IMG/VR virus record: IMGVR_UViG_3300029118_000008 | DNA: 53,152 nt | Direction: 5' to 3' (one strand) | Source of the DNA: a virus | In this document: positions 768 through 53,152 of the stretch, in pieces | Layout: every line of letters begins with the position of its first letter | Numbering within the stretch: the first letter of the stretch is position 1 | Translations under genes and position numbers: made by a program | Notes under the pieces: generated by a model | Databases searched by the model: none | What the model was told of the DNA's origin: nothing | Seen by the model: only the letters and a program-made list of their open reading frames with translations

Positions 768-792
768 CAAAACGATTAGAAACGTTTATAAT
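764..792 (+). promoter_or_regulatory. Perfect sigma-A consensus promoter TTGACA-N17-TATAAT
   Basis: TTGACA at 764-769, 17-nt spacer, TATAAT at 787-792. It overlaps the stop codon of the 423..767 ORF. Confidence 0.5.
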
Positions 793-822
793 GATGTTGG
801 TCAAATGTTCCAGTTCCTTTCT

Positions 823-860
823 CCCTTCCATGCACAGCCCTGCATGGAGGGGCTTTTTTT
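823..860 (+). terminator. Rho-independent terminator
   Basis: 12-bp stem CCCTTCCATGCA / TGCATGGAGGGG with one G-U pair, a 6-nt loop, then C plus T7 (854-860). Confidence 0.75.
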
Positions 861-1095: not shown

Positions 1096-2145
1096 CTACT
1101 TGGACACAGAAGTCAACATACTTTCGACCTTTCGGATGGCGTTTTCTTCCTTTTTTTCCGTGAGATGTGCATATATCCGCATTATCATCGTCTCATCCTC
1201 ATGCCCCATCCAGCGCGCGGCAGTTTTAATGTCAACATCCGCATTATAAAGCATCGTCGCAAAAGTATGTCTGCAATCGTGCTGCCTGATTACCACATTT
1301 CTCCCCGCAATTTTTGATAGATGATTTTGGTAACGCTTCCACGCATCGGTTACAGCACTGAAAGAAATAATTTTGTTATCTTTCGATATTATCACGCTTC
1401 CGTGTCGCCCTTGCAAGACATCCCGTAACGGCGGAAACAGCGGCACGTTACGAATACCAGCTTTGGTTTTGGGTACAGTGATAATATAGTCGGAACGTTC
1501 GCGTCGAATCGCCTTTCGGACGTGAATCACACCTTTCTCAAAATCAACATCATCATCAATATCGAGCGCAAGCGCTTCTCCACGCCTAAGCCCTGCATAC
1601 ACCATCACCATCGCGTAAATTCCCATTCTTTCGCTGTCACAAGTATCTCTGATTAGTTTTATTTCCCAATCATCAAGATTGCGGTGCGTCCCTACTTCTC
1701 CTTTCTTTCGCCTAACGTTCTCGCAGGGAGAAATTGCAACTATTCCATCATTTTTTGCAGCGCGGAAAACCGCTCTTGTTGCTTCGGCTATCTTTCTTCG
1801 CGTCCCTTCTCCGCGGTCGGCAAAAGCGTTATAAAGTCGCTGTACATCCGACGGCGTGATTAGTCGCATCTCTGTCTGCGGCAGGATTGATGCTATCTGG
1901 TTAAGGCGTGAGACATATGCATCATATACATTTATTGTCACCTCGCTCTTGTACGTCGGCAGCCACTCCGCCGCGTACTCCGCGAACGTGTACTTCTCCC
2001 GTGGCTTCCTGCCGTATTTTTCCTGTTTCTTGTACTCTTCGCGGGCTGAAAGGGCTTCGGACTGCGTTCGCCCGTAGAACGAGAATCCTTTATATTTGCA
2101 AACGTAACGCCCGTCTGGGCGCTTTTTTAGTGTCTGGCGTGGCAA
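1096..2145 (-). CDS. int: Tyrosine recombinase / phage integrase
   Basis: Catalytic signature LRRGEALAL ... HDCRHTFATML ... MGHEDETMIMRIYAHL (R-H-R-Y), with an N-terminal DGRYVCKY arm-binding-like domain. Probable TTG start at 2145, 8 nt after AAGGAG. The ORF track extends to 2253. Confidence 0.9.
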   Translation of the reverse strand: MPRQTLKKRPDGRYVCKYKGFSFYGRTQSEALSAREEYKKQEKYGRKPREKYTFAEYAAEWLPTYKSEVTINVYDAYVSRLNQIASILPQTEMRLITPSDVQRLYNAFADRGEGTRRKIAEATRAVFRAAKNDGIVAISPCENVRRKKGEVGTHRNLDDWEIKLIRDTCDSERMGIYAMVMVYAGLRRGEALALDIDDDVDFEKGVIHVRKAIRRERSDYIITVPKTKAGIRNVPLFPPLRDVLQGRHGSVIISKDNKIISFSAVTDAWKRYQNHLSKIAGRNVVIRQHDCRHTFATMLYNADVDIKTAARWMGHEDETMIMRIYAHLTEKKEENAIRKVESMLTSVSK

Positions 2146-2320
2146 GTGTATCACTCCTTTTTTCTCATTGTGCCGCAAATCGCAGCAAAGTGCCATCGTA
2201 ATTTGTGAACAAATTGAAAACATTTTGCAAACGCACAGAAAATTTTTTATCATATTTCGCTGTGCGTCAGCATATGGTATTGCGGTGGACGGTAAAAAAT
2301 ACGCGACGGGAGATGAAAAT

Positions 2321-2638: not shown

Positions 2639-2730
2639 AGTATGGCGTGTTTCATAATTTGCAAAAGCGCCTGAAATACAGTGATTGCAAGGCTTTGCGC
2701 CACGCTGACGCAAAAATCCGCAAAATGCGA

Positions 2731-2870
2731 TAGCTATGCTAAAAATAAAATAGCTTAGCTATTAAAAAAATAGCTGAATTATTTTTGCTATTAAAAAAAA
2801 TAGCACAGCTAAAAAATAAATAGCAGAATTATTTTTGCTATGCACATTTTTTTTGTGCTATTCGGCGCTA
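2731..2870. repeat. Helically phased A-tract + TAGC/GCTA array, including a ~50-bp duplicated unit
   Basis: TAGC starts at 2731, 2751, 2771, 2801 and 2821, each preceded by A5-A8. TAGC(T/A)GAATTATTTTTGCTA occurs at 2771-2790 and 2821-2840. Confidence 0.85.
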
Positions 2871-2905
2871 ATAATCTCCGCGTTTTACAAGTGGCGTTTG
2901 TTGTC

Positions 2906-3068
2906 TCGCGCGCGCGACATAGTTATATTATAATACATACTTGTGTGTAATATAATATATATTATCATACAGTATAATATAAGTTGCTATATAGTACAAG
3001 CATGGATATATAATAATATAAGCAGCTATATAACACAAGTATGTATATATAAATAATATATAATAAAA
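2906..3068. repeat. TCGCGCGCGCGA palindrome followed by a ~150-nt block made almost entirely of TA/TATA-type words
   Basis: tcgcgcgcgcga at 2906-2917, then atagttatattataatacatac...tatatataaataatatataataaaag. There is no credible ORF on either strand. Confidence 0.85.
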
Positions 3069-3237
3069 GACCACTACCACCACAAGAACACATACTCGAC
3101 AGAGTAGGGTAGGGGGATAATAGGGGGTATAGAGTAATAGGGGGTATGGGGGGAAGAGGGGAAAGGGGGGAAGAAGCGGGAGGGGAGAGGGACGGGCGGT
3201 GGTCTTGTGGTGGTGGCAGCGGCGGTGGTCTTTTTTT
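3065..3237 (+). repeat. G-run tract (more than ten runs of G3-G6) enclosed by a long-range stem and followed by T7
   Basis: 5' arm aaaagaccactaccaccacaagaac (3065-3089). G-runs at 3104-3197. 3' arms ggtggtcttgtggtggtgg (3198-3216) and ggcggtggtcttttttt (3221-3237). Confidence 0.8.
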
Positions 3238-3381
3238 ATCCAGCACCTTTCTGCGGGCATCCGCAGCATGGTCATCTTCGCGCCTTCGCAAAATTGATAG
3301 CCACGGGCAGACCATTTTCGCGGCATCACGCAAATGGTTCTCACAGCCATTTTTGCCCAACAAAAAAATCAGCAGGGGGGC

Positions 3382-3496: not shown

Positions 3497-3910
3497 TCAC
3501 GGTTCGCCCTTTTCAGCATCCACCTTGTCCGCCATGCGCTTTAAGCTATCGCGTTCCCTGCGCTCCTGCCGCATCCGACGTTCCGCCTTCGCGGTGAGGT
3601 ACTCAACGTAGTTCATCGCTTCACGCACCACGTCATCCGGCGCGCCCATCAGCTTGGCGATAATCGCCTCGCAGGTTGCGTCGAGAATCGGGCGGTCAGA
3701 CGTTCCTTGCGGGTTGTCGGACAGTCCGCAAAGGTAGTCGGTTGTCACGCCGAGCGCTTCGGCGAACTTCACGATGCTGGTAATCTCCGGCGTGATGATT
3801 CCACGCTCATAGCACGAATACGTCGCTTGCGACACTCCAACGATGCTTGCCATTTCGGCTTGCGTCTTTTTTTTTGCCTTTCTCGCTTCCTTGAGCCTAT
3901 CTCCAAGCAT
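3497..3910 (-). CDS. CI-like XRE-family HTH repressor
   Basis: N-terminal LKEARKAKKKTQAEMASIVGVSQATYSCYERG HTH. C-terminal DDVVREAMNYVEYL tail shared with two paralogues. Divergent from a Cro-like gene. Confidence 0.8.
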   Translation of the reverse strand: MLGDRLKEARKAKKKTQAEMASIVGVSQATYSCYERGIITPEITSIVKFAEALGVTTDYLCGLSDNPQGTSDRPILDATCEAIIAKLMGAPDDVVREAMNYVEYLTAKAERRMRQERRERDSLKRMADKVDAEKGEP

Positions 3911-3972: not shown

Positions 3973-4008
3973 TAGCATTGATAATAAGCACTGATTGGAG
4001 GGATGCGG

Positions 4009-4209
4009 ATGCAGAACCGCTTGCGTGAGTTCCGCGCAAAGAAGGGCTTGACGCAGATGCAGATTGCAGACGTGCTCAGATGTCAGCAGAGCCTTGTATC
4101 TCAGTATGAGAGGGGTGTACATACACCGTCACTGCATAACGCTATCCGCCTTGCCCGTGCGCTTGGAACGACGGTCGAAGCCCTTTTCGGGGGTGAGGTT
4201 GATGGCTGA
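4009..4209 (+). CDS. Cro-like XRE HTH protein
   Basis: LREFRAKKGLTQMQIADVLRCQQSLVSQYERG. The ATG at 4009 is 7 nt after GGAGGG. The ORF-track start at 4003 is too close to the SD. Confidence 0.75.
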   Translation: MQNRLREFRAKKGLTQMQIADVLRCQQSLVSQYERGVHTPSLHNAIRLARALGTTVEALFGGEVDG

Positions 4210-4936: not shown

Positions 4937-4965
4937 TTGACATATATGCCAAATTGACATATAAT
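4937..4965 (+). promoter_or_regulatory. Perfect consensus promoter containing the direct repeat TTGACATATA x2
   Basis: TTGACA at 4937-4942, N17, TATAAT at 4960-4965. A second TTGACATATA starts at 4954. Confidence 0.55.
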
Positions 4966-7918: not shown

Positions 7919-7947
7919 TTGACATCAACGTAAAGTTGATGTATAAT
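7919..7947 (+). promoter_or_regulatory. Perfect consensus promoter with the palindrome CATCAAC-N5-GTTGATG in the spacer
   Basis: TTGACA at 7919-7924, N17, TATAAT at 7942-7947. The inverted repeat spans 7923-7941. Confidence 0.6.
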
Positions 7948-8000
7948 GTAAACAAGCAAGCGGAAAACACTTGCCGAGAGTTGATGAGAAGGGAGCAACA

Positions 8001-9654: not shown

Positions 9655-10107
9655 ATGACCGAGTTTGGAGGGAATGAGCTGCGGAAAGCACGAGAAAATG
9701 CAGGTATCCGGCAGTGGCAGATTGCAAGCGAAATCGGCGTTTGTGAAGCACTCGTCGGGCGCTGGGAGCGTGGCGAAGCGTTCCCGTCGCCAGACGACGT
9801 TGACCGACTGGAAATCGCCTACAAAGCGCCGGGATTGTGGCACAAGTGGATGCTATCCAACTGCGATAGCTACCGCCGACATTATCGCGGCGTAGATGAG
9901 ACAACGACGGCGGGGAGCGTTCTCCGAGGACGGTTTGCGATTGAGGACGTGATGTGCTTGCAAAGCGCAATTGAGCGCGACGTGTCGGAAGACGGGCGCA
10001 TTGATAACCCGATTAACCGAGATAAGTACGAGGAGGTTCTGCGAAAGGCAATCGCCTGTCTGACGGACACGCTTGCCCGAATCGAGAAAAGAGGTGGCGC
10101 GAAATGA
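9655..10107 (+). CDS. XRE HTH protein with a C-terminal extension
   Basis: LRKARENAGIRQWQIASEIGVCEALVGRWERGEAFP. Confidence 0.7.
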   Translation: MTEFGGNELRKARENAGIRQWQIASEIGVCEALVGRWERGEAFPSPDDVDRLEIAYKAPGLWHKWMLSNCDSYRRHYRGVDETTTAGSVLRGRFAIEDVMCLQSAIERDVSEDGRIDNPINRDKYEEVLRKAIACLTDTLARIEKRGGAK

Positions 10108-19509: not shown

Positions 19510-20048
19510 AAAAGTACGAACTGACAGGCGAAACAAAAGAAATCGGCGGAAAGATTCTGCATCGCATCCGTGCGCTGATTGATATTCCGGAGCACGACGT
19601 GAAGGCTGGTGACTTGGGCGGCTGGATTGAGGCGGAGAAAAATCTGTCGCAAAACGGCGCAGCGTGGGTAACTGGCGAGGCGTTGGTGATGGGTTCGGCG
19701 CGCGTGATGGATTCGGCGTGGGTGATGGGTTCGGCGCGCGTGATGGGTTCGGCGCGCGTGATGGATTCGGCGCGCGTGATGGATTCGGCGTGCGTGATGG
19801 GTTCGGCGCGCGTGATGAAGTCGTCTGACTGCATCACCATCGGAGCAATCGGAAGCCGTGACGGCACAACCACTTTTTACCGTTGCGAAGATGAGAAAAT
19901 ATACGTTTCCTGCGGATGCTTCAGCGGCTCGATTGACGACTTTGCCGCAAAAGTCAAGGCAGTCCACGCCGGGACGAAGCACGAAAGGACGTATCTGCTG
20001 GCAATCGAACTGGCGAAGGCGCAGCTTGGGACGACGGAGGAGGAGTGA
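19506..20048 (+). CDS. Hexapeptide-repeat (left-handed beta-helix / bactofilin-like) phage protein
   Basis: MKKYELTGETKEIGGKILHRIRAL..., then eight (G/D)SA(R/W/C)VM hexapeptides. Confidence 0.6.
   Translation: MKKYELTGETKEIGGKILHRIRALIDIPEHDVKAGDLGGWIEAEKNLSQNGAAWVTGEALVMGSARVMDSAWVMGSARVMGSARVMDSARVMDSACVMGSARVMKSSDCITIGAIGSRDGTTTFYRCEDEKIYVSCGCFSGSIDDFAAKVKAVHAGTKHERTYLLAIELAKAQLGTTEEE
19686..19817 (+). repeat. In-frame 18-nt tandem repeat (7 full units plus a partial one)
   Basis: gtgatgg(g/a)ttcggcg(c/t)g(c/g) units begin at 19686, 19704, 19722, 19740, 19758, 19776 and 19794. Confidence 0.9.
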
Positions 20049-21168: not shown

Positions 21169-21194
21169 TCGTGTGGCGGTTGCGGGAGGGGAAA

Positions 21195-21590
21195 ATGGTT
21201 GACTTAAAGCGGATGCGGTATCTCATCAGGCGGTATCCTATGGCTTGCTTGCGAGCGGAGCAGGCGCGAATCCGGGCGCAGAAGCTGACGCGGACAATAA
21301 GCGACGCGCCGCGCGGGGGCGGGAGCATGAACAGCACGGAGGAAGGGCTGCTGTATCGCGTCGAGGCGCTTGAGCGCAAGAAAGCAATCTGGGACGAGTT
21401 GTGCAAGATGCGCGAAGAGCTTGCGCCGCTGGTGGATGCGCTGGAAAGTCCGTTGGAAGTGCAGTGCATGAGGATGCGATATCTGGAGGGAAGGAGTGTC
21501 CGGGAAATCAGCTACAATCTGGCGTATTCCGAGCAGCACGTCTTCCGCGTAATTGGTAACGCAGAGCGGGAAATCCAGAGCGCGGAATAA
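21195..21590 (+). CDS. Sigma-70 region-4-like late transcription regulator (ArpU/RinA-type)
   Basis: C-terminal RMRYLEGRSVREISYNLAYSEQHVFRVIGNAEREI resembles a sigma region-4 HTH. It is the last gene of the early/middle block. Confidence 0.55.
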   Translation: MVDLKRMRYLIRRYPMACLRAEQARIRAQKLTRTISDAPRGGGSMNSTEEGLLYRVEALERKKAIWDELCKMREELAPLVDALESPLEVQCMRMRYLEGRSVREISYNLAYSEQHVFRVIGNAEREIQSAE

Positions 21591-21595
21591 GGCGG

Positions 21596-21625
21596 TCGCG
21601 CATCGAAAGGTGCGCGATTTTCTTT
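21596..21625 (+). terminator. Rho-independent terminator
   Basis: TCGCGCA-tcgaaagg-TGCGCGA followed by TTTTCTTT. Confidence 0.7.
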
Positions 21626-21739
21626 GCAAAAATCGCAAAAAAATGTGATTTGCCCCTTGACATATACGGTAGTATATGCTATAATAAATAGTGTCAAGGG
21701 GCGGTAAAAAAGAACCCCGGACAGAAAGAGGTAAGAAAA
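21623..21739 (+). promoter_or_regulatory. Cassette copy 1: A-tract upstream element + perfect promoter + conserved 5' leader hairpin + SD
   Basis: tttgcaaaaatcgcaaaaaaatgtgatttgcc. TTGACA at 21657-62, N17 (containing CATATAC-N4-GTATATG), TATAAT at 21680-85. Leader atagtgtcaaggggcggtaaaaaagaaccccggacagaaagaggtaag. Confidence 0.7.
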
Positions 21740-22051
21740 ATGGAAAAAACTCGTAAGTTGGACGTAGAAAGTCAGTACGACCATTTCGTTGTGGAAATCG
21801 AAGTCGTTGACGGAGTTTGCGATGGCTATCGCAGTTTTATCGCCGCTTGTGACGGCGCTTATTACGACGGAAGTTCCTATAAATACGACGGAAGTTCCTA
21901 TAAAGAAGCAAAAGCGATGTATGATAAACTCGCCAAATACGAAGACGGCATACATGGTGCCGTTATTTTGATAGCGCACAACATCGAGTGCGATGATTGG
22001 GATACGCTGGAAACAAACGAAATCAATGATGTTTGTCAGGACGAAGAATAA
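21740..22051 (+). CDS. Small acidic orphan protein with an internal YDGSSYK duplication
   Basis: 103 aa, D/E-rich, ending ...CDDWDTLETNEINDVCQDEE. First gene behind cassette copy 1. Confidence 0.6.
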   Translation: MEKTRKLDVESQYDHFVVEIEVVDGVCDGYRSFIAACDGAYYDGSSYKYDGSSYKEAKAMYDKLAKYEDGIHGAVILIAHNIECDDWDTLETNEINDVCQDEE

Positions 22052-22140
22052 CCATGCACCCGCCCGGAGGTACGAGGGCAAAAGGAGGAAATGCGCAATG
22101 CTTTGCAACCAGAAGGATTTTGTAAACCTGCGTAGACTAT

Positions 22141-22223
22141 TTGACATATACGGCAGTATATGCTATAATAATAGTGTCAGAAGGGCGGTACAAAAAAAGC
22201 CCCCGACAGAAAGAGGTAAGACA
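22141..22223 (+). promoter_or_regulatory. Cassette copy 2: perfect promoter + conserved leader
   Basis: TTGACA at 22141-46, N17 (CATATACGGCAGTATATG), TATAAT at 22164-69. Leader aatagtgtcagaagggcggtacaaaaaaagcccccgacagaaagaggtaag. Confidence 0.7.
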
Positions 22224-22896: not shown

Positions 22897-23115
22897 ATGC
22901 GTAAAGAGTATTACCAAGGGGACATTTCCGTCCGCGCGATGAAGAAGTACCGCGAAAAAGAAGGAATCAAGACGGTGCGCTTCGACGTTCGCGCTGGGAG
23001 CAAAGAGGCGCTGGAAGAAGAAGCAAAGCGCCGCGGTATCTCGGTGGCGCAGCTAATCGTTGATTCCGTAAACGCTTATGTCGGGCGTGCGATAATTACC
23101 AACAGAAAACAATAA
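22897..23115 (+). CDS. RHH-like small DNA-binding protein (Aca-like position)
   Basis: KTVRFDVRAGSKEALEEEAKRRGISVAQLIVDSVNAYV fits a strand-helix-helix pattern. It has its own TTGCAA-N17-TACAAT promoter upstream and a terminator follows. Confidence 0.45.
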   Translation: MRKEYYQGDISVRAMKKYREKEGIKTVRFDVRAGSKEALEEEAKRRGISVAQLIVDSVNAYVGRAIITNRKQ

Positions 23116-23123
23116 TAGCATGG

Positions 23124-23150
23124 GGCGCATCCGCTGGGGTGCGCCTTTTT
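23124..23150 (+). terminator. Rho-independent terminator
   Basis: GGCGCA-tccgctgggg-TGCGCC followed by TTTTT. Confidence 0.7.
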
Positions 23151-23164
23151 CGTTGCGCAAAAAG

Positions 23165-23284
23165 TTTGCAAAAATCGCAAAAAAAATGTGATTTGCCTCT
23201 TGACATATACGGCAGTATATGCTATAATAATAGTGTCAGGAGGGCGGTACAAATAAAAGCCCCCGACAGAAAGAGGTAAGAATT
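23165..23284 (+). promoter_or_regulatory. Cassette copy 3: upstream element + perfect promoter + conserved leader
   Basis: tttgcaaaaatcgcaaaaaaaatgtgatttgcc. TTGACA at 23200-05, N17, TATAAT at 23223-28. Leader aatagtgtcaggagggcggtacaaataaaagcccccgacagaaagaggtaag. Confidence 0.7.
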
Positions 23285-24056: not shown

Positions 24057-24169
24057 TTGGAAGAGGCGACTATGGAAGTGCTGCTCTTGCCTCTTCAGCG
24101 GCGGGATTTATGCGCGATGCGCTTTGTTGCGTTGGTGGGGACGCGACGGAAGAAGAGGAGGGAAAACCA

Positions 24170-24679
24170 TTGCTTGACTGGAACGGCATCAAAATCGTCG
24201 AAACGGATTGTATGCTGCCGATTGACCGCGTGAAACCATACGCGAGAAACGCAAAGCGGCATCCGCAGGAGCAAATCGACGAAATCAAGGCAAGCATCAA
24301 GCGGTTCGGAATGGACGACCCCATCGGCATCTGGGGCAAGGAAAACCTGATTGTAGAGGGTCACGGGCGGATGGAAGCGTGCAAGCAGCTCGGCATCCCC
24401 ACAGTGCCGTGCATTCGCCTTGACCACCTGACGAAGGAAGAGCGCAAGGCGTACACACTGGCGCACAACAAAACCAACATGGACAGCGGCTGGGACTTTA
24501 CGGCGCTCGACCAAGAGCTGGCGGAAATCGTTGATATTGACATGAGCGAGTTCGGTTTCGGTGCTTCCGTGGGGGGGCAAGAAGTCAACATTGACGAGCT
24601 GTTTGCGGCAAATGGAGAAGAGAAAAAGAAAACCAAAACTATAACATGTCCTCATTGCGGGCAAACTTTCGAGCCATAA
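24170..24679 (+). CDS. ParB/Srx N-terminal-domain protein with a C-terminal zinc ribbon (DpdB-like position)
   Basis: LPIDRVKPYARNAKRHPQEQIDEIKASIKRFGMDDPI...IVEGHGRMEACKQLG is a ParBc-type pattern. C-terminal ITCPHCGQ. TTG at 24170 after GAGGAGGG. Confidence 0.65.
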   Translation: MLDWNGIKIVETDCMLPIDRVKPYARNAKRHPQEQIDEIKASIKRFGMDDPIGIWGKENLIVEGHGRMEACKQLGIPTVPCIRLDHLTKEERKAYTLAHNKTNMDSGWDFTALDQELAEIVDIDMSEFGFGASVGGQEVNIDELFAANGEEKKKTKTITCPHCGQTFEP

Positions 24680-25518
24680 TGCGAATTTTTCTAGCTGGGG
24701 GGGTATCTGGGAATCTCAAACCGCTATGGGATGATGTTGCAGAAGGGAAAGACTTATCGGAAGCGATGAATGTTTTTTTAGCTGGGAATGCTCCTTATAG
24801 GAATGAAGGCTTATACGATACAACAATCACAACAAACCGCCCATATATTCTCGAATCGTTCTATTACGCAGATGCAACAACAGAAAAGCTCATTCCATAT
24901 TACGGCGACTTTCTATTGGACAGCGGAGCTTTCACATTTATGATGGGAAGCAAAAATTGCAAAACGTTAAAATGGAACGAATATGCTGATAAATACGCTG
25001 ACTTTATTAAGCGAAATAACGCAAAAAAGTACTTCGAGCTTGACATAGACAGCATCGTTGGATATGAGCAAGTAAAAATCCTGCGAAATCGCTTGCAAAA
25101 AACTACTGGCATTCAGCCGATACCCGTATGGCATAAAAGCCGCGGGAAAGACGAATTTTTGCGGATGGTTGACGAGTACAAGTACGTCGCACTCGGTGGA
25201 ATCGTCAGCAAAGAATGGAGCAAAGATGAACACAAATTCTTTCCGTGGTTCATCAATGAAGCGCATAAGCGCAATGCCAAAATCCACGGTTTGGGTTACA
25301 CAAGCCTCGAAGGATTGAAGAAATATCATTTTGATAGCGTAGATTCGACAGCATGGACGACTGGAAATAGATTTGGGTACATTTACAAATTTGATGGTTC
25401 GACTATGAAGAAATATGATGCTCCGCAAGGGCATAGATTAGCAGATTCACGCAAAGCCGCGCTAATTAACTTTGGCGAATGGGTGAAATTTCAAAAATAT
25501 GCGGAGGTGCATTTGTGA
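24679..25518 (+). CDS. dpdA: DpdA-family (tRNA-guanine-transglycosylase-like) DNA 7-deazaguanine transglycosylase
   Basis: FLLDSGAFTFM (TGT catalytic-Asp motif xDSGGF), YVALGGIVS (LGGL-like) and HFDSVDSTAW (FDCV-like). TAATG overlap with the ParB-like gene. Confidence 0.65.
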   Translation: MRIFLAGGVSGNLKPLWDDVAEGKDLSEAMNVFLAGNAPYRNEGLYDTTITTNRPYILESFYYADATTEKLIPYYGDFLLDSGAFTFMMGSKNCKTLKWNEYADKYADFIKRNNAKKYFELDIDSIVGYEQVKILRNRLQKTTGIQPIPVWHKSRGKDEFLRMVDEYKYVALGGIVSKEWSKDEHKFFPWFINEAHKRNAKIHGLGYTSLEGLKKYHFDSVDSTAWTTGNRFGYIYKFDGSTMKKYDAPQGHRLADSRKAALINFGEWVKFQKYAEVHL

Positions 25519-27218: not shown

Positions 27219-27602
27219 ATGCCGAGAGGAACTCATCCTAATAGCCTTGCAAACCTGCAAAAGGGGAAAAGGTTCGGGAGCGGGAAGGACGGGGCGACGA
27301 GTGACGCGAGGAAAGCGCACGAAAAAGCAACGCAGGCGCGCAAAGCAAATTTTACCGTCAAGGAGCTGATGCTCAATCTGCTTGACGAGCCGTTGCAAAA
27401 TGGCGGGACGTTGCGAGAAGCACTTGTGAAACGCACCGTCAAAATGGCAGCAGACGGGAATTTACCCGCTTTTCAGTATATCATGCGGATTATCGGGGAA
27501 GACCCCGGAGACGTTGTGACCGTCAAAGCGCCGCAGTTGTCCGAGGACGCGAAAGCAGACATTGACAAGCTGCTGAAAGAAACGCGGGGAGAAGTAAAAT
27601 GA
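27219..27602 (+). CDS. terS: Terminase small subunit
   Basis: MPRGTHPNSLANLQKGKRFGSG... is a typical TerS N-terminus. Directly upstream of terL with an ATGA overlap. Confidence 0.7.
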   Translation: MPRGTHPNSLANLQKGKRFGSGKDGATSDARKAHEKATQARKANFTVKELMLNLLDEPLQNGGTLREALVKRTVKMAADGNLPAFQYIMRIIGEDPGDVVTVKAPQLSEDAKADIDKLLKETRGEVK

Positions 27603-28870
27603 CGACGCTGACGCGGGATGAAGTGTGGAACATTTGGCGATACCATCCCGCCGCCGTCGGAAGAATGTGCGGATTCCGTGACTTAACGGACGAGCTTCAC
27701 GGACGCTGGATGCAGCACATCATCTTCGGAGCGGACGATTACACGCTTCAAGCGCACCGCCTGTCCTACAAGTCTTCCTGCCTTTCCGTCGCTTTGGCAA
27801 TGTGGTGCGTTCTCAACCACGGAAAAAACGCGATTTTTATGCGAAAAACCGACAGCGACGTTGTGGAGAGCATCGCACAGGCGAAAAAGGTATTCGCGAA
27901 CGAGGCTTTTTGCTACATGGCGCAAATCCTCATGCAGCAGGACGTGACGCTGCTGAAATCTGGCGGCAACTGTATGACGGTGAGCGTGTACGATTCGCCG
28001 CGCGGCGCTGACCAGCTAATCGGCATCGGCTGCGGTTCGTCCATGACGGGCAAGCACGCGGATTTGATTGTATGTGACGACGTTGTAAACCTCAACGACC
28101 GCATCAGCCGCGCAGAACGAGAGCGCACAAAGGGAGTTATCCAGGAGCTGCGAAACATCGTCACCCGCGACGGGCGAATCGTCTTTATCGGCACACCGTG
28201 GCACATCGAGGACGCGTTCACGATGGTTGCACCGCCGGAAAAGCACGACTGCTATTCCACCGGGTTGATTTCGCCGGAGAAGCTGGAAGAGCTGCGGAAA
28301 TCAATGTCGCCGTCGCTGTTTGCCGCGAACTACGAGTTGCGCCACATCGCCGCCGAAAACGCGCTGTTCGACACGCCGCCGACGTTCACGCCGGAGGCGG
28401 AAAAGCTGCGGGACGGCATCGCGCACGTTGATGCTGCCTATGGCGGCGAGGACTACACCGCGCTGACGTGCGCCAAGAGGGACGGTGACACGCTGTACTT
28501 GTACGGGCGTTTGTGGCGCAAGCACGTTGATACGCTGATGGACGCACTGCAATCGGAGACGGATCGCCTCATGTGCGCCCCGATTTACTGCGAGACAAAC
28601 GGCGACAAGGGGTATTTGGCGCGGGAATTGCGCCGCCGAAACATGGCGGTACGCGCGTACCCGGAGAAAATGAACAAGTACCTAAAAATCAGCACATACC
28701 TCAAAAAGTGGTGGGGGAATATCGTGTTTTTGGAAGGAACAGACAGGGACTATATCGCGCAGATTATGGACTACACAGAGGACGCGGAACACGACGACGC
28801 GCCGGACAGCGCCGCGTGCTGCTGCCGGATTCTCGACAGGAGCGGCGCGAGTTTGTATGTTGGGGGGTGA
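27599..28870 (+). CDS. terL: Terminase large subunit
   Basis: Size and position fit. ATPase-like ...KSSCLSVALAMW / ADLIVCDDVVN and a nuclease half IVFIGTPWHIEDAF. Confidence 0.8.
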   Translation: MTTLTRDEVWNIWRYHPAAVGRMCGFRDLTDELHGRWMQHIIFGADDYTLQAHRLSYKSSCLSVALAMWCVLNHGKNAIFMRKTDSDVVESIAQAKKVFANEAFCYMAQILMQQDVTLLKSGGNCMTVSVYDSPRGADQLIGIGCGSSMTGKHADLIVCDDVVNLNDRISRAERERTKGVIQELRNIVTRDGRIVFIGTPWHIEDAFTMVAPPEKHDCYSTGLISPEKLEELRKSMSPSLFAANYELRHIAAENALFDTPPTFTPEAEKLRDGIAHVDAAYGGEDYTALTCAKRDGDTLYLYGRLWRKHVDTLMDALQSETDRLMCAPIYCETNGDKGYLARELRRRNMAVRAYPEKMNKYLKISTYLKKWWGNIVFLEGTDRDYIAQIMDYTEDAEHDDAPDSAACCCRILDRSGASLYVGG

Positions 28871-46648: not shown

Positions 46649-47023
46649 ATGGAAAGCCTCACCGCTGATAAACTGATTCTGGCGCTGGGCGTGATCCTCG
46701 TCCTGCTGGGAGCATACAACACATTTTACACCGCGCGGAAAAATGCGCGAGATGAACGCAAGAGACAGGAGCAGCCAACAAACGCGCTGGCATCCAGCGT
46801 ATCAGACATCAATCGCAAGCTGGACACAGACAAACGCCGCCTTGATGGGCACGAAGAGCGCATCGGCGGCTTGCGTGACGGACTGATGGTAACGTGCGCC
46901 GGAGTACAGGCACTTTTGGAGCATGAGTTACACAACGGCAACGCCGACGAAATGACGGCGGCAAGCAGGGAAATTGATAATTGGTTGAGGGGCAACGCCC
47001 TAAAGGGAGGAAATGCAAAATGA
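46649..47023 (+). CDS. Lysis-associated membrane protein (N-terminal TM + coiled coil)
   Basis: LILALGVILVLLGAYNTFY TM segment followed by a charged helix. Lies between the endolysin and holin genes. Confidence 0.45.
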   Translation: MESLTADKLILALGVILVLLGAYNTFYTARKNARDERKRQEQPTNALASSVSDINRKLDTDKRRLDGHEERIGGLRDGLMVTCAGVQALLEHELHNGNADEMTAASREIDNWLRGNALKGGNAK

Positions 47024-47241
47024 GTGAGAATTTGAAGCGCAAGCTGACAAGCCGCAAGTTCTGGGCGGCAGTTGTATCCTTTGTAACCATGCTGATTATG
47101 GCGTTCGGCGTTGCGGATGAAACCGCAACACAGGTCGGCAGCATCATCATGGCGGGTGCTACGGTTATCGCCTACATCATCGGTGAGGGCATGACGGACG
47201 CGGCGGCGGTCACAGAGGGCAAGGACAAACCGAAGGAGTAA
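47020..47241 (+). CDS. Holin
   Basis: 73 aa, KLTSRKFWAAVVSFVTMLIMAF...IIMAGATVIAYIIGEG. Two TM segments and a charged C-terminus. ATGA overlap. Confidence 0.65.
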   Translation: MSENLKRKLTSRKFWAAVVSFVTMLIMAFGVADETATQVGSIIMAGATVIAYIIGEGMTDAAAVTEGKDKPKE

Positions 47242-47244
47242 CGT

Positions 47245-47496
47245 ATGAGCCGCGAAGTCGTATGGACAAAAGCGGTTGTAGATGCTTTTGTGGATGAAGC
47301 CTGTTTGTCGGATGAAGAAGAGCTGATTATCAGGTCGCGGGCAAAAGGCTGGACACGCACAAAGCAGTCGATGCAGTACAATATGAGCATTCGCAAGATT
47401 GACTATATTATACACACGCTAAAAACCAAGTACGACGAGGCGCAAAAATACTCCGAAATTTTACCCAAAAGGAATATAAAGAAAGCCGGGACGTAA
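47245..47496 (+). CDS. Small sigma-region-4/LuxR-type HTH protein
   Basis: SDEEELIIRSRAKGWTRTKQSMQYNMSIRKIDYIIHTLKTK. Confidence 0.45.
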   Translation: MSREVVWTKAVVDAFVDEACLSDEEELIIRSRAKGWTRTKQSMQYNMSIRKIDYIIHTLKTKYDEAQKYSEILPKRNIKKAGT

Positions 47497-47512
47497 TGTC
47501 CCGGTATTTTTT
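47486..47512. terminator. Bidirectional rho-independent terminator between the late operon and minus-strand island II
   Basis: CCGGGAC-gtaat-GTCCCGG followed by TATTTTTT, with an A-rich 5' flank. Confidence 0.7.
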
Positions 47513-47520
47513 GTTGCGCA

Positions 47521-48114
47521 CTATTCTTGAGCCTGACGCTTGCACTCAACGTCAAGTTCTGGATATACCCCTGCGATTTTCGCAAGGGTTTCGCTTTTTA
47601 GGCGATGGTACAGCTCTTCCTTGCCGACAAGCCAGAACAGGTCAAGCAATTTGTCGTCATATTCACAGAGGTTATGGCGGATGAAATTAACCATCCAGCG
47701 TTCCAGCGTCTCGGTGTTCGGGGACAATATATCCACATTGCCATGCTCCAAATACCATTCTTGCTTTGCGTTCAGCGTCGCCTCTTCCAGAACGGACATA
47801 TCCCAGCGCGTAACGTGGATGGAAGCAATGAGGTCATCGGCAATAGCTTCGGCGTTCTTTCGCTTCGTTTCGACGGCTTTTGCGGACGCTGCTTTTCGTG
47901 CGGCTGCTTTTGCCGCCATCGTCTGGAACTCCTGCGTCTCCATGGCGGAACGTACATCTTCCTCGCGCCATAACTTCATGGGCGCGGCGGATGCGTAGCG
48001 CGGATTCCGTTTGAGGACGGGCGGCGGCAGCAGCTTTTCTATCATGGACTTGGTGAAGCCCATGGACAGAACTGCCGATTGCGAAATAAGCTGTTCCTTC
48101 TGCTTTTCCGGCAT
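47521..48114 (-). CDS. Hypothetical protein (197 aa)
   Basis: ATG after AAGGGGG. Last gene of a minus-strand operon. Confidence 0.55.
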   Translation of the reverse strand: MPEKQKEQLISQSAVLSMGFTKSMIEKLLPPPVLKRNPRYASAAPMKLWREEDVRSAMETQEFQTMAAKAAARKAASAKAVETKRKNAEAIADDLIASIHVTRWDMSVLEEATLNAKQEWYLEHGNVDILSPNTETLERWMVNFIRHNLCEYDDKLLDLFWLVGKEELYHRLKSETLAKIAGVYPELDVECKRQAQE

Positions 48115-48148: not shown

Positions 48149-48967
48149 CTATTTTTTGTTTATTTTTAATACCTCGTCTATTGCCGCACGACTTTCGTCA
48201 GAAACCTTCTTCCCATTTTCGTAATTTCGTATTGTTCTTTCGGATAAATGCACGATTTCCGATAGCCGTGCAACGGTAAAGCCCGCTGCAATTCGCGCCT
48301 TGCTTGCTTCTGTTTTCTCTTTTCGATACTTTCTCGGCTTTTCAAGCGAACCGTGTTGCTTCTTTGCTGGCAGATTAGAGGCTTTAAGCGCCTTTGCATC
48401 CGCGCAAGCATCGGAACAATATACTCTGTGCGCTTTATTGGGCGTAAATATCTTTCCGCAAGTTGGGCATAAACGAACGCGTATTTCCGCCATCTTCTTT
48501 TGCGTCTCACCACGCGATTCTTTCCGCCTCTGATTTGTCTTCTCAGCGTTTTTTTTATAGTAATCCAGCGCGCGCTTGCGCGTTTGCTCTGCCGCGCAAT
48601 CTGGACACATTACTTGCTTTCCACTGTTTATAATATACGGTTTTCCGCAAATCTCGCAGTAGGCAGTTCCGCCGATTACACGACTTTTCCCATTTTTCTT
48701 TCGTTCTTCATACTCTTTTTTCCTTTTTTTCTTCGCCGCCACGTTGCAAGTCGGACAACGCTTTGAGCGCGGATAACCCATGTATTTTGCGCCGCAATCC
48801 TCGCAGACCTTCTCCTTTATTGTTTCGTGTATATTAAAATGCCCTTTTCCTAATAAGGCATTTGCTTCTTTTGATTCCTTCTTTTTCATCTCAATAGCGC
48901 ATTGCGGGCAGCAGAAGTACTCCTGCTGCCCGGATAATGGTTTCCCACAGTTTTCGCAAAGCCTCAC
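48149..48967 (-). CDS. Multi-zinc-ribbon protein with a C-terminal XRE-type HTH
   Basis: At least five CxxC...CxxC pairs (CENCGK..CCPQC, CEDCGA..CPTC, CEICGK..CPDC, CPTCGK..CSDAC), then FTVARLSEIVHLSERTIRNYENG. Confidence 0.6.
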   Translation of the reverse strand: MRLCENCGKPLSGQQEYFCCPQCAIEMKKKESKEANALLGKGHFNIHETIKEKVCEDCGAKYMGYPRSKRCPTCNVAAKKKRKKEYEERKKNGKSRVIGGTAYCEICGKPYIINSGKQVMCPDCAAEQTRKRALDYYKKNAEKTNQRRKESRGETQKKMAEIRVRLCPTCGKIFTPNKAHRVYCSDACADAKALKASNLPAKKQHGSLEKPRKYRKEKTEASKARIAAGFTVARLSEIVHLSERTIRNYENGKKVSDESRAAIDEVLKINKK

Positions 48968-49263
48968 TCTTTAAGCCCCCACATCTCCAGCGTATCGTCG
49001 ATATACTCGGTGTCGCTTTCGTTGCATTCCTTCCAAGGGGTTCTGGGGTCGCCGATAATCGCTTCGATTTTAGCGATTGTCTCTTCTGCCCATTTGCTAC
49101 CATCCTCTTCAAGGTCATTCAGCGCGACAGGATTCCCTTCCGTCGTGAGAATCCACTCACCATAGACGGGTTCGACACCCACATACAGCGTGTAGGTGAG
49201 ACCTTCTTCAGAGCCACAGAACTCGTAGATTTCGGTGTTCTCGTTAACAATAACCTTCTTCAT
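48964..49263 (-). CDS. Small acidic orphan protein (99 aa)
   Basis: ATG at 49263 behind cassette copy 4. By my count, 24 D/E against 7 K/R. Confidence 0.6.
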   Translation of the reverse strand: MKKVIVNENTEIYEFCGSEEGLTYTLYVGVEPVYGEWILTTEGNPVALNDLEEDGSKWAEETIAKIEAIIGDPRTPWKECNESDTEYIDDTLEMWGLKE

Positions 49264-49390
49264 AATGCTTACCTCTTTCTGTCCGGAGCTTTTATTTTGC
49301 ATCGCCCCTTGACACTATGTATTATAGCACAAGATATATACTTTGTCAATATCTTTTTGGGGTTTTCCGCAAGTTTTTTGCAACTTCCAC
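49264..49390 (-). promoter_or_regulatory. Cassette copy 4 (minus strand): upstream A-tract element + perfect promoter + conserved leader
   Basis: Read on the minus strand: gttgcaaaaaacttgcggaaaaccccaaaaagata-TTGACA(49349-44)-N17-TATAAT(49326-21)-acatagtgtcaaggggcgatgcaaaataaaagctccggacagaaagaggtaagcatt-ATG. Confidence 0.7.
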
Positions 49391-49392
49391 TC

Positions 49393-49554
49393 CTATTCCT
49401 TCCGCACTCTTTCCGCCAGCCACTCCGAGATTGCAAGCCGAATGACAGCCGAATCGTTCAGGCTTAACTTTTTTGCTACGTCCTTAATCTGCGCATTCTG
49501 CTCTTTCGTCAGAATTACGCACTTTGCAACCTTGTTACCGTTTTCACTAATCAT
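49393..49554 (-). CDS. RHH (CopG/Arc-like) protein, 53 aa (not in the ORF track)
   Basis: My translation: MISENGNKVAKCVILTKEQNAQIKDVAKKLSLNDSAVIRLAISEWLAERVRKE. ATG lies 8 nt after GGAGGAG. Confidence 0.6.
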   Translation of the reverse strand: MISENGNKVAKCVILTKEQNAQIKDVAKKLSLNDSAVIRLAISEWLAERVRKE

Positions 49555-49561
49555 CTTCTTG

Positions 49562-49993
49562 TTACTCCTCCTTTCTGGGGCTGCCGTAAATCGGCTTACA
49601 CCAATTGCCCATGCTTCCGACCACCACCTGCGGCAAGTAACCGCCTGTGGTGCGGTCGTAGTGCATCAGCGTCAGCTCAATGCCGCGATACACGCAGCCA
49701 CGGATAACCGCCGCCACGCAAGCGGTCAGTCCCGTGACGTAGACGACCAGCGGGTGATTGCCCGTTGTCACCTCGATGTCCGCGTACTCGTTGTCGTTGA
49801 ATCGAGTACCATAATTGGACAAATGTGTCCCCACACGATTGTCAAGGAACGCGTCGACCGTCCGCGACATAGCGCGGAAGTCCGTGGGGTCTACCTCCAT
49901 TTGGAAGATAAACTCGTCCACGGGCATGTCGTGCCGCCCAGCACACAGACCGACGACGACGGCATTGGAAGGAATTTGAAAAGTAAAGTCCAT
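49562..49993 (-). CDS. Orphan alpha/beta-looking protein (143 aa)
   Basis: ATG at 49993 after AGAGGA. VVVGLCAGRHDMP...LVVYVTGLTACVAAVIRG...HYDRTTGGY. No family recognised. Confidence 0.55.
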   Translation of the reverse strand: MDFTFQIPSNAVVVGLCAGRHDMPVDEFIFQMEVDPTDFRAMSRTVDAFLDNRVGTHLSNYGTRFNDNEYADIEVTTGNHPLVVYVTGLTACVAAVIRGCVYRGIELTLMHYDRTTGGYLPQVVVGSMGNWCKPIYGSPRKEE

Positions 49994-50085
49994 AATATTT
50001 CCTCTCGCTTTCTGCCCTCGTAACCTCCGGGGCGGGTGCATGGTTATTCTTCGTCCGGGGGCCTTTTTGTACACTATGTATTATA
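49994..50085 (-). promoter_or_regulatory. Cassette remnant (copy 5): -10 box and truncated leader without a -35, plus a 55-nt segment repeated at 22039-22091
   Basis: Read on the minus strand: TATAAT(50085-80)-acatagtgtacaaaaaggcccccggacgaagaataaccatgcacccgccccggaggttacgagggcagaaagcgagaggaaatatt-ATG. Confidence 0.5.
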
Positions 50086-50119
50086 GCACAAGCATTCTGC
50101 CGGGCGTGCGCCCGGAGCA

Positions 50120-50497
50120 TCAAAGCTCTGCAAGCCAGCGGGTTGCACCGAAGCCGAAGTCACGTTCCAGCTCTTCACGCAGGCAGTACTGCTCTGCGTC
50201 CTCATCTGCCTCCAACCACTCCGTGTCATCCAGCAGTTCCGCTGGAACATTGCGGTCGTCGGTTAGGTACTGCTCCAGCCACATTTCTTGCCCCAGAATA
50301 GCCTCCTTCATGCCACTGTCGGGCTCCAGCATTTCATCCCAACTATCGAAGAATAAGGGGTCGCCGTTCGTTTCGACACACACGCTTCCCGTCGCCGTGT
50401 CGAGGAGGATGTGTCCTCCTTCTTCCCAATTCCCATCGTAGTCCTCGTAGTGGTACGCAGTCACGCGCACCCGCTGCTTCAAAATCGTCTTTTCCAT
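50120..50497 (-). CDS. Strongly acidic orphan protein (125 aa; DNA-mimic-like composition)
   Basis: By my count, 33 D/E against 9 K/R. First gene behind cassette copy 6. Confidence 0.6.
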   Translation of the reverse strand: MEKTILKQRVRVTAYHYEDYDGNWEEGGHILLDTATGSVCVETNGDPLFFDSWDEMLEPDSGMKEAILGQEMWLEQYLTDDRNVPAELLDDTEWLEADEDAEQYCLREELERDFGFGATRWLAEL

Positions 50498-50625
50498 ACG
50501 TTACCTCTTTCTGTCGGGGGCTTTATTTTTTTTGCACCGCCCCTTGACACTATTATTATATCACAAGATATATACTTTGTCAATACCTTTTTGAGGTTTT
50601 CCGCAAGTTTTTTTGCAACTTTCCA
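50498..50625 (-). promoter_or_regulatory. Cassette copy 6 (minus strand): upstream element + perfect promoter + conserved leader
   Basis: Read on the minus strand: gttgcaaaaaaacttgcggaaaacctcaaaaaggta-TTGACA(50583-78)-N17-TATAAT(50560-55)-aatagtgtcaaggggcggtgcaaaaaaaataaagcccccgacagaaagaggtaacgt-ATG. Confidence 0.7.
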
Positions 50626-52636: not shown

Positions 52637-53062
52637 ATGGCTGAATATACTGCGGCGGCGGCTCAAACCGTCGCCAATGGCAACAACGTCCTTTTTACTG
52701 CAACGCCCGTCTGCGCAACGCGCTGCATCGTCCATCGTGAGGGGTCTGGCATCGTGACACTGCGAGGCATCACCAACGGACAGTGCCGCGCACGTTTCCG
52801 CGTCAATTTTGGCGGCAATATCGCCATTCCGACGGGCGGCACTGCCGGAGCTATCTCTGTCGCGCTTGCAATCGCGGGTGAGGTGCTTCCGGCTTCTACC
52901 GCCATCGTCACCCCTGCGGCGGCGGCACAATACCAGAACGTCAGCGTCGACACCTTTGTTGACGTTCCGGCGGGGTGCTGCACGACCATCAGCGTCAAAA
53001 ATACCGCTGGCGTGGATATTGACGTGCAGAATGCCAACCTGATTGTCACGCGCGTTGCGTGA
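52637..53062 (+). CDS. TNF/C1q-like all-beta protein resembling exosporium BclA-C-terminal / BxpB (ExsF)-type domains
   Basis: IVTLRGI...ARFRVNFGGNIAIPTGGTAGAISVALAI...TTISVKNTAGVDIDVQNANLIVTRVA. There are no collagen repeats. Confidence 0.35.
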   Translation: MAEYTAAAAQTVANGNNVLFTATPVCATRCIVHREGSGIVTLRGITNGQCRARFRVNFGGNIAIPTGGTAGAISVALAIAGEVLPASTAIVTPAAAAQYQNVSVDTFVDVPAGCCTTISVKNTAGVDIDVQNANLIVTRVA

Positions 53063-53152
53063 GGAAAGGAGAAACGCAATGAAGTATCTTCACGAACTTA
53101 AAGAAAAACTCTGCGAAGAGCTGCAAGAGATTGCGGAGAAGCAGGATATGTC

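Follow-up and report, generated by a model that had tools for sequence, protein, structure and literature searches.

One leader behind several front ends: a candidate modular expression cassette in two gene islands of a temperate phage from the human gut

Why would two groups of small genes, 27 kb apart and on opposite strands of one phage genome, be preceded by the same leader when the promoters in front of that leader are of two kinds? The question was raised by the initial annotation of IMG/VR virus record IMGVR_UViG_3300029118_000008, here called the window, and all coordinates refer to its full 53,152 nucleotides (nt). Five units, c1 to c3 in island I (plus strand) and c4 and c5 in island II (minus strand), share a block of ~60 bases that extends from the -10 box to the Shine-Dalgarno (SD) sequence. 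A sixth copy, c6, also read on the minus strand in island II, has decayed. The six copies are made up as follows, with operator classes A to D as defined below.

21594–21739, plus strand: c1 unit, with a terminator (21594–21619), an A-tract element, a class A promoter (21657–21685) and the leader (21686–21739)
22141–22223, plus strand: c2 unit, with a class A promoter and the leader
23160–23284, plus strand: c3 unit, with an A-tract element, a class A promoter (23200–23228) and the leader
50584–50625, minus strand: c5 upstream element, UP-element-like, with roughly phased A-tracts (GTTGCAAAAAAACTTGCGGAAAACCTCAAAAAGGTA), conserved in all class B/C units
50555–50583, minus strand: c5 promoter, with a class B operator in the spacer (palindrome core 50564–50579)
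50498–50554, minus strand: c5 leader, with UGUC (50549–50546), GGGGC (50543–50539), a 17-nt A-rich loop, GCCCC (50521–50517) and GACA (50515–50512)
50080–50115, minus strand: c6 front end, which has no -35 box, with a hairpin CCGGGCGCACGCCCGG (50115–50100) and an extended -10 box TGTGCTATAAT (50090–50080)
49994–50079, minus strand: c6 scar, in three pieces
49350–49390, minus strand: c4 upstream A-tract element
49321–49349, minus strand: c4 promoter, with a class B operator in the spacer (palindrome core 49330–49345)
49264–49320, minus strand: c4 leader, with UGUC (49314–49311), GGGGC (49308–49304), a 14-nt loop, GCUCC (49289–49285) and GACA (49283–49280), followed by the SD

The motifs that the initial annotation had described on the minus strand at c4 (49390–49264) and c5 (about 50619–50498) are present there. 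Both copies read GTTGCAAAAAA(A)CTTGCGGAAAACC(C/T)CAAAAAG(A/G)TA, TTGACA, AAGTATATATCTTGTG(C/A) and TATAAT and, after the -10 box, (A)ATAGTGTCAAGGGGCG, an A-rich stretch, GC(T/C)CC(G/C)GACAGAAAGAGGTAA, 3–5 nt and ATG. The 15-mer GACAGAAAGAGGTAA has exactly five exact occurrences in the window, at 21720, 22205 and 23265 on the plus strand and at 49269–49283 and 50501–50515 on the minus strand. When up to three mismatches were allowed, seven matches were found against 0.98 expected, a number reached in 0 of 100 shuffles. A repeat finder independently recovered the copies as direct pairs (D2, D5, D6 and D9) and inverted pairs (I1–I4). From the -10 box to the ATG, the leaders are 83–92% identical within islands and 79–86% identical between them. 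Outside this block, identity between islands drops to background (44–56%) in the promoter spacer, over 40 nt of upstream sequence and over the initial 60 nt of the coding sequence.

When an 18-mer from the leader was used to query IMG/VR, it matched 106 stretches, mostly in contigs of 43–58 kb, and the leader-bearing contigs frequently carry several copies each, on both strands. The same query returned 21 matches among 185,579 representative bacterial genomes, but none of these had the leader and they were judged to be chance. For comparison we used a set of ~60 related viral contigs, labelled L###. The 15-mer at the 3′ end of the leader had served as the search pattern for these relatives, and its invariance in the pattern-searched set is therefore an artefact. 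To get round this bias, a profile was built and leader copies were found by a profile search of the fetched DNA, which yielded 181 good copies with 93 distinct leader sequences. All 181 begin at a -10 box, and none is internal to an operon. The constant part is ATAGTGTC..GGGGC..loop..GCCCC..GAC(A/G)GAAAG, and variants with other SD parts (GACAGAAAGGGAAAG, GACAGAAAGAAGGTAT and GACGGAAAGAGGTAA) were found. Approximately 28 different gene families lie behind the retained leader, and several classes of front end precede it, as expected from the earlier proposal that the leader is the conserved unit to which differing front ends are attached. Identical c4 and c5 units within the same island II were also found in independent ENA, Logan and JGI assemblies (L128–L135) from several samples, some of them integrated prophages. 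The leader copies are therefore not assembly chimeras, a possibility that the initial annotation had raised.

All five unit promoters consist of TTGACA and TATAAT separated by 17 nt, matching at 12/12 positions, with TG before the -10 box. The 17-nt spacer holds an 18-bp palindrome, which we read as an operator. The palindromes fall into two families of two alleles each, and the outer arms are common to both alleles of a family. The island I alleles are class A (CATATAC-GGCA-GTATATG, 68 copies in the relatives) and class D (CATATT-GCCGGG-AATATG, 14 copies), and those of island II are class B (ACAAGGTATATACCTTGT, 27 copies) and class C (ACAAGTTGCGCAACTTGT, 54 copies). The window carries three class A and two imperfect class B operators, and neither palindrome was found elsewhere in the window outside the unit promoters. 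Upstream of the -35 box, each island type has its own conserved, roughly phased A-tracts, whatever the operator allele. What had been described as a second promoter class is better put as a second operator family for a second candidate repressor of ribbon-helix-helix (RHH)-like type. A fifth type of front end, that of c6, has no -35 box and consists of the hairpin and the extended -10 box listed above. In L002, a front end of this type that is 100% identical to c6 over 130 nt precedes an intact leader and gene.

Five further perfect promoters in the window, at 764, 3382, 4937, 6843 and 7919, have no such leader. The last of these (7919–8000, plus strand) has a palindromic spacer, CATCAAC GTAAA GTTGATG, and its transcript would start with a 5′-proximal hairpin (GCAAG CGGAAAACA CTTGC) followed by a purine-rich SD. 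The design is that of the leader units, in unrelated sequence.

Which proteins might act on the operators? Two small basic proteins, both encoded downstream of an operator-bearing promoter, are the candidates.

22897–23115, plus strand: RHH1, 72 amino acids, RHH-like, candidate class A/D repressor, encoded by the last gene of the c2 operon, directly before the terminator at 23122–23147
49393–49554, minus strand: RHH2, 53 amino acids, RHH-like, candidate class B/C repressor, encoded by the last gene of the c5 operon

RHH1 identity is at least 90% in the 34 loci that have only class A operators and 59–65% in the eight that have only class D. Two loci have both classes, and RHH1 identity there is 93% (L094) and 62.5% (L003). 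The differences are almost all at residues 24–32, which read IKTVRFDVR with class A and MQKITIEVQ with class D. The genes adjoining RHH1 (the ArpU-like gene and g20887) share ~97% identity in the class A and class D groups alike. In RHH2, K-C-[IV]-I-[LV]-T accompanies class B operators and K-N-[VI]-I-V-T accompanies class C, and this match between strand and operator persists even where the remaining protein resembles the other class. As one protein with KNIIVTR goes with class C operators, position 12, which is Cys or Asn, is the class-tracking residue. Single-sequence models place the class-tracking residues in a predicted N-terminal strand ahead of two helices. Because the operator allele is matched by changes in this strand but not in the neighbouring genes, RHH1 is most likely the A/D repressor and RHH2 the B/C repressor, to judge from the correlation, and each island would repress itself. 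On this reading, the islands resemble burst regulons under autorepression that express small and often very acidic ORFans.

The evidence that RHH1 and RHH2 have the RHH fold is weak but consistent. The match to RHH_1 (E = 0.007) is below the curated cut-off, and the top PDB profile matches are RHH proteins at E = 0.03–0.08. Weak sequence or fold matches were to RHH_1, ORF56, CopG, VapB26, ParG and Arc, and the structure-based names that depositors have given to close relatives are ParG and CopG. Two points tell against the assignment: the structure models are single-sequence predictions of low to moderate confidence (pLDDT 70 and 62), and their Foldseek matches are non-significant (E > 1).

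Several other proteins were considered and rejected. CI was rejected as a binder of leader or operator, since its alleles (72–100% identity) fail to follow operator class and the leader does not change from one allele to the next. None of the zinc-ribbon/helix-turn-helix (HTH) protein, g48114, g50690, the ArpU-like protein and g20887 co-varies with operator class, as a class-specific regulator should. Cro did not track operator class across the relatives either.

If front ends and leaders are separable, they should be found in new combinations. The cassette exchange that the initial annotation had suggested is seen in the relatives, where the same gene families stand behind differing front ends, and in the window, where c1 is chimeric. 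The MKPEN family was found behind classes A and B, and MARAI behind A, B and C. The MEETR family lies behind B and C in the relatives, and MEKTR behind A in the window. In c1, island I of the relatives is matched from 21600 to 21676, a part that includes the terminator, the A-tracts, the -35 box and the greater part of the class A operator. From 21677 (TGCTATAAT) to ~22092, the matches are to island II units; identity is 97% with L002 (over 390 nt) and 85% with L080 and others. The c1 gene (MEKTRK...) stands behind class B/C promoters in the relatives. By these alignments the junction is at the -10/leader, and c1 can be demonstrated to be a chimera. When the 3′ junction of the insertion (22086–22140) was compared with the relatives' loci, no homologue was found among them.

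In c6, ACATAGTGT comes after TATAAT (50085–50080), the hairpin has no 5′ arm, and the sequence goes on with GGCCCCCGGAC and GAAGAATAA. The -10 box and ATAGTGT are kept, and ...CCCCGGAC runs straight into GAAGAATAA. The three pieces of the scar are a leader remnant without the 5′ arm (50079–50053), the final codons of a deleted MEETRK-type gene (GAAGAATAA, 50052–50044), and the 3′ intergenic segment of the deleted gene (CCATGCACCCGCCCCGGAGGTTACGAGGGCA...), which matches 22039–22092 of the window. The position of c6, directly upstream of the homologue of 49562–49993, is where L080 has an intact gene, and c6 is 99.6% identical in two further contigs, L029 and L065. Comparison with these relatives identifies c6 as a deletion scar of the gene family found in c1. 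The initial annotation had described a decayed third copy at 49994–50085 that retained the -10 box and had lost both the 5′ arm and the -35 box. The copy is there, with its -10 box and without the arm. Its front end, however, is the distinct type that precedes an intact leader in L002, and what has decayed is the leader, through loss of 11 nt of the 5′ arm, together with the gene behind it, which has been deleted to its last codons.

A segment CCATGCACCCGCCC(C)GGAGGT(T)ACGAGGGCA is shared by 22052–22092 (plus strand) and 50043–49997 (minus strand), with 90% identity over 60 nt. It lies after the MEKTRK-type gene in island I and after the scar in island II, and it accompanies that gene in the relatives.

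Leader subtype sometimes travels with the gene (MKPEN has AGGAGG behind B, and c1 has AAGG behind A) and sometimes with the front end (MKTIK and MKFAS have AAGG behind D and AGGAGG behind A). Across the family, the SD type goes with the gene. The crossovers therefore lie to either side of the hairpin, in the manner described for the promoter-early stem-loops (PeSLs) of T4-like phages (PMC2839356; PMC4122927).

What might the leader itself do? All five leaders are predicted to fold alike, with an outer UGUC/GACA stem, an inner GGGGC/GCCCC stem and an A-rich loop of 12–17 nt. As the initial annotation had noted, the 3′ arm of the inner stem in c4 is GCUCC, which pairs with GGGGC through one G-U pair. 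Folding energies range from -9.4 to -13.9 kcal/mol (minimum free energy -11.6 kcal/mol for c4 and -13.2 kcal/mol for c5). The SD (AGAAAGAGG or AGAAAGGGA) is unpaired in all five; in c5 the unpaired purine SD that follows the hairpin is GAAAGAGGTAA. Indels among the leader copies are confined to the A-rich loop, and in the relatives the distance from arm to arm takes nine values from 28 to 36 nt, which argues for a loop rather than a fixed double-stranded site for a dimeric protein. An Rfam search at the leaders (E up to 1) returned no match. The sole Rfam match in the window, to c-di-GMP-I-UAU at 47005–47085 (plus strand), scored 24 bits against a gathering threshold of 65.9 (E = 0.69) and is most likely chance. 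Antisense promoter-like and terminator-like matches inside the leader were set aside as by-products of the AT-rich -10 box and the G/C arms, and a leader mini-ORF was set aside because an in-frame ATG is found in c4 only and is not conserved.

We propose that each unit is a modular expression cassette made up of a repressor-controlled front end, a stabilising leader and a recombination joint, a model that, taken as a whole, we lean towards rather than hold firmly. It builds on the repeat architecture, the operator classes, the protein–operator co-variation and the recombinant junctions described above; its predicted parts are that the RHH-like proteins bind and repress, where transcription starts, that the RNA is stabilised and when the genes are expressed. 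The front end would combine A-tracts and a perfect sigma-A promoter, which has an extended -10 box, with the palindromic operator in the spacer. Once the DNA has entered the cell, strong firing of the promoters would be ended by their own RHH-like product, giving an autorepressed burst. The leader would form a 5′ untranslated region (UTR) of ~55 nt in which UGUC opens a hairpin at the predicted RNA 5′ end. The hairpin is followed by the invariant GAC(A/G)GAAAG and by an SD that is strong, purine-rich and predicted to be unpaired. Such a leader could shield the 5′ end from 5′-dependent decay and load ribosomes efficiently, and the outcome would be stable, well-translated mRNAs for small, often very acidic accessory proteins. 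By analogy, a stabilising, ribosome-loading 5′ UTR is the most likely role for it. The -10 box and leader together, being the only homology between otherwise unrelated units, may also work as the joint at which genes and front ends are swapped, between islands and between phages.

Several observations weigh against parts of this model. The hairpin begins 5–6 nt past the -10 box, at the predicted +1, but the start sites are predictions only. Covariation gives the hairpin no support: 94.5% of cells can pair against 93.0% in shuffles, nearly all of the pairs are invariant, and only one pair has changed on both sides. The z-scores of the folding energies are modest (-1.2 to -3.0). The 5′ half of the loop, CGGU(A/G)CAAAA, is conserved as strongly as the stems, which a pure stabiliser would not need. 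The short leaders of two other perfect promoters, at 4937 and 6843, lack a hairpin, and expression in the host therefore does not require one. The relatives are also very close, with many proteins 90–98% identical, and conservation between phages therefore says little about constraint.

The conserved loop invites a different reading, in which the leader is a cis-acting RNA or DNA site for a common trans factor (a translational repressor, a small RNA (sRNA) or a host protein) that governs both islands. The leader parts at issue would then be the loop or GACAGAAAG, apart from the stem and SD, and conservation does reach the loop bases and GAC(A/G)GAAAG, beyond what stem and SD need. The leader is the same in phages with differing CI and RHH alleles, so any factor that binds it would be a conserved one. 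Such factors could be sought in the conserved zinc-ribbon and HTH protein encoded in island II or in a candidate sRNA of ~65 nt with a CU-rich single-stranded stretch at 799 to ~860. However, no candidate binder was found, the pairing between the candidate sRNA and the leader, judged by eye, is only ~6 contiguous bases, conservation among such close relatives cannot prove constraint, and the 3′ part of the leader differs between gene families. We regard a common factor as rather unlikely. In its strongest form, which we find unlikely, the leader is a dedicated cis-regulatory RNA through which one conserved factor (a protein of the phage or of the host, or a phage sRNA such as the 799–860 candidate) joins both islands, with their anti-defence-like genes, into a single regulon controlled after transcription. 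If this were true, the loop bases and GAC(A/G)GAAAG would be the recognition site. We think it improbable, too, that the leader has no function of its own beyond the SD and is a duplicated patch of homology kept alike by recombination or gene conversion. Clear recombinant junctions in the leader, the lack of covariation and the other strong promoters in the genome that work without it would all fit. Against this, the block is sharply bounded, with 79–92% identity against surroundings at background, hairpin potential is kept in almost all cells while indels fall only in the A-rich loop, and the gene-less c6 has also lost a hairpin arm, as expected if the arm is maintained only in use.

A third role for the stem-loop, that of a terminator or insulator of the PeSL type against transcription from upstream, has in its favour that the stem, like those of PeSLs, is built of G-runs and then C-runs. 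There is no U-tract after the stem, the loop is 12–17 nt, a sense-strand terminator scan does not call the leader hairpin, and c1 and c3 have separate canonical terminators just upstream (21594–21619 and 23122–23147). Termination is a very improbable role. We give almost no credence to the inversion of the 27-kb structural block, yielding genome isomers, for which the initial annotation saw a substrate in the inverted leader copies. The inverted arms of I1–I4 are 38–42 nt long with 74–93% complementarity, but swapped flanks were found in 0 of ~190 unit contexts in the relatives. MKFAS (behind c3) occurs only behind A or D, and MKKVI (behind c4) only behind B or C. Front ends of classes A and D always have the ArpU-like gene upstream and g23412, ParB or DpdA downstream, and those of classes B and C always lie between a divergent g50690 on the upstream side and the zinc-ribbon/HTH protein or g48114 on the downstream side.

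The sole class A promoter inside an island II was found in L015 (IMGVR_UViG_3300045988_031082; 18-mer at 9965–9982, minus strand). As it has island II flanks on both sides, this is a front-end replacement and not an inversion, and it runs in the opposite direction to the event that produced c1 in the window.

The candidate sRNA at 764–860 (plus strand) is an element in its own right. A perfect promoter (764–792) is followed from ~799 by GGTCAAATGTTCCAGTTCCTTTCTCCCTTCCATGCACAGCCCTGCATGGAGGGGCTTTTTTT, which contains a 12-bp GC-rich hairpin and a U-run. The product would be a phage sRNA of ~65 nt with a single-stranded, CU-rich (anti-SD-like) stretch. The element lies between the gene at 423–767 and the integrase gene, near the presumed attP, and has no Rfam match.

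Under the modular cassette model, the genes behind the leaders are the payload. They and their neighbours are as follows.

21740–22092, plus strand: c1 gene, acidic ORFan of 103 amino acids (isoelectric point (pI) 4.24), and its 3′ flank; the family is in island II in the relatives
50120–50497, minus strand: c5 gene, very acidic ORFan of 125 amino acids (pI 4.05), with no Pfam match
49562–49993, minus strand: ORFan of 143 amino acids downstream of the c6 scar
48964–49263, minus strand: c4 gene, very acidic ORFan of 99 amino acids (pI 4.05)
48149–48967, minus strand: zinc-ribbon and HTH protein of 272 amino acids in the c4 operon, with no co-variation with operator class
47521–48114, minus strand: ORFan of 197 amino acids in the c4 operon, with no co-variation with operator class
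47485–47505: bidirectional terminator closing the c4 operon

The small leader-driven proteins returned no Pfam matches. The c3 transcript would run on into genes for a weakly ArdA-like protein, a ParB-like protein and a DpdA-like enzyme of DNA modification. Gene content, together with strong promoters that appear to be autorepressed, leads us to guess that the cassette genes have early host-takeover or anti-defence functions. Downstream of c3, at 24110–25518 (plus strand), lie a ParB-like gene and one for a queuine tRNA-ribosyltransferase (DpdA)-like transglycosylase, which suggests 7-deazaguanine-type DNA modification driven by a leader promoter. In L131 and L132, a 140-amino-acid gene is called 10 nt past the RHH2 stop, where the window has the 99-amino-acid gene. 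The c4-type leader and MKKVIV start are still present (at 10231 in L131 and 7169 in L132), and the longer call probably arises from an upstream in-frame start, like an open reading frame of 112 amino acids in the window that starts in the leader loop.

The window comprises a complete phage genome (~53.05 kb) and a terminal repeat of 99 nt (1–99 = 53054–53152), and its G+C content is 53%. Its landmarks are as follows.

1096–2253, minus strand: integrase
3497–3910, minus strand: CI-like repressor
4003–4209: Cro-like protein
21171–21590: ArpU/RinA-like regulator
27599–28870: large terminase (TerL)

Among GenBank phages, the nearest relatives of TerL are the terminases of Enterococcus and Lactococcus phages (<50% identity), and a blastn search of island II against GenBank phages returned no match. 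Proteins of the window are present in nr under an uncultured human-gut Caudoviricetes metagenome-assembled genome (MAG). In the relatives' assemblies, integrated copies of the phage adjoin BioY, malic enzyme and CinA genes, and the malic enzyme that flanks an integrated copy is 88–89% identical to 'Clostridia bacterium' MAG proteins. From the integrase, CI and Cro, the integrated copies and the Clostridia-like flanking malic enzyme, we conclude that the phage is temperate and that its host is an uncultured gut member of the Clostridia.

The closest parallel for the architecture is with the PeSLs of T4-like phages, in which an AT-rich upstream region and a consensus sigma-70-type promoter are combined with a G-run/C-run stem-loop, an SD and a start codon (PMC2839356; PMC4122927). 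In one PeSL subclass the stem-loop is just downstream of the -10 box (PMC2839356). Both are repeated composite motifs that lie mostly before ORFans in plastic regions, and in both, recombination between copies leads to insertions, deletions and replacements, represented here by the c1 chimera and the c6 scar (PMC2839356; PMC4122927). Here these parts are represented by the 12/12 promoters, the upstream A-tracts, the GGGGC/GCCCC and UGUC/GACA stem, the SD and the ATG. However, this is a temperate, integrase-bearing Clostridia phage and not a T4-like myovirus. Its stem-loop appears always to be inside the 5′ UTR and is not terminator-like, its spacers hold palindromic operators with allelic specificities, and there are 5–6 copies per genome in two islands rather than ~50.

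In Cluster K mycobacteriophages, many unrelated non-structural genes have a conserved, asymmetric, SD-containing sequence (SAS) a few bases ahead of the ATG, and ESAS adds an inverted repeat with a variable spacer upstream; a part in translation has been proposed for these elements, whose function is unproven (PMC3203893). The variable spacer recalls the range of arm distances found here. The SAS consensus, GGGATAGGAGCCC, is 3–7 bp before the start, whereas here GAC(A/G)GAAAG is combined with an SD. Unlike the copies here, each of which starts at a -10 box, SAS sites have no fixed link to promoters, and the host phylum differs. For the regulation, the nearest model characterised by experiment is Reg576, the RHH protein of plasmid p576: it holds down its own synthesis and the activity of four strong sigma-A promoters that serve establishment genes, and expression comes as a transient burst once the DNA has entered the cell (PMC6294495). 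It shares with the islands strong sigma-A promoters with an extended -10 box, a Gram-positive host and a small self-repressing RHH protein, which here is a candidate (PMC6294495). The operators of Reg576 are direct heptamer pairs (PMC6294495), in contrast to the 18-bp spacer palindromes found here. Here there are also two predicted repressor/operator families with two alleles each. The acr-aca operons follow the same logic of autorepression (PMC6765145, PMC9410906), although characterised Aca proteins are mostly HTH proteins. P22 Arc/Mnt can be likened to the islands by the same repressor logic. As in such RHH regulons, the operator here appears to overlap the promoter, the presumed regulator gene lies inside the regulated unit, and strand residues seem to track specificity.

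Gram-positive 5′ mRNA stabilisers, such as the aprE, ermC and cryIIIA leaders and the SP82 polypurine element, resemble the predicted form of the leader in having a stem-loop at or near the 5′ end and a strong purine-rich SD in a leader of ~55–60 nt (PMC3997798). Those are single-gene leaders for which stabilisation has been shown by experiment, whereas the module here is repeated and, by its sequence, shuffled. Some archaeal viruses have a very similar regulatory sequence with a strong promoter before small, unrelated early anti-defence genes, which are clustered near the genome ends with a small repressor among them (PMC11065993). These have BRE/TATA promoters, no conserved 5′ UTR hairpin and a winged HTH regulator (PMC11065993). 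The cassette thus works like a PeSL and an SAS/ESAS coupled to autorepression of the Reg576/Aca type. It is a member of none of these, as its stem-loop is not terminator-like, the sequences are unrelated, the phage group differs and there is no Rfam family, and the mechanism is not new.

If the model holds, conserved regulatory DNA doubles as a recombination joint among human-gut phages, and this joint would carry promoter specificities and small accessory genes from locus to locus and from phage to phage. With changes in very few strand residues, an RHH-like repressor would shift specificity together with its operator; a single Cys/Asn position tracks two operator cores. The leader can also be used as a search handle. 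It retrieves ~28 families of small, often very acidic proteins, and in uncultured Clostridia phages these are promising candidates for a part in early host takeover or anti-defence. Current views are not overturned by any of this, and the PeSL, SAS and Aca/Reg576 ideas are extended to a new phage group.

Two further repeats were observed in the window. In the interval between the integrase and CI genes (2720–3250), AAATAGC-type A/T-rich repeats (2723–2841) are followed by a TATA-rich tract (2930–3070) and a G-rich stretch (~3100–3200), and this interval may act in regulation or as an origin or attachment site. A tandem array at 19644–19841 (plus strand) contains at least eight copies of the 18-nt sequence GCG(C/T)G(C/G)GTGATGG(G/A)TTCG, presumably a six-residue repeat within a coding region.

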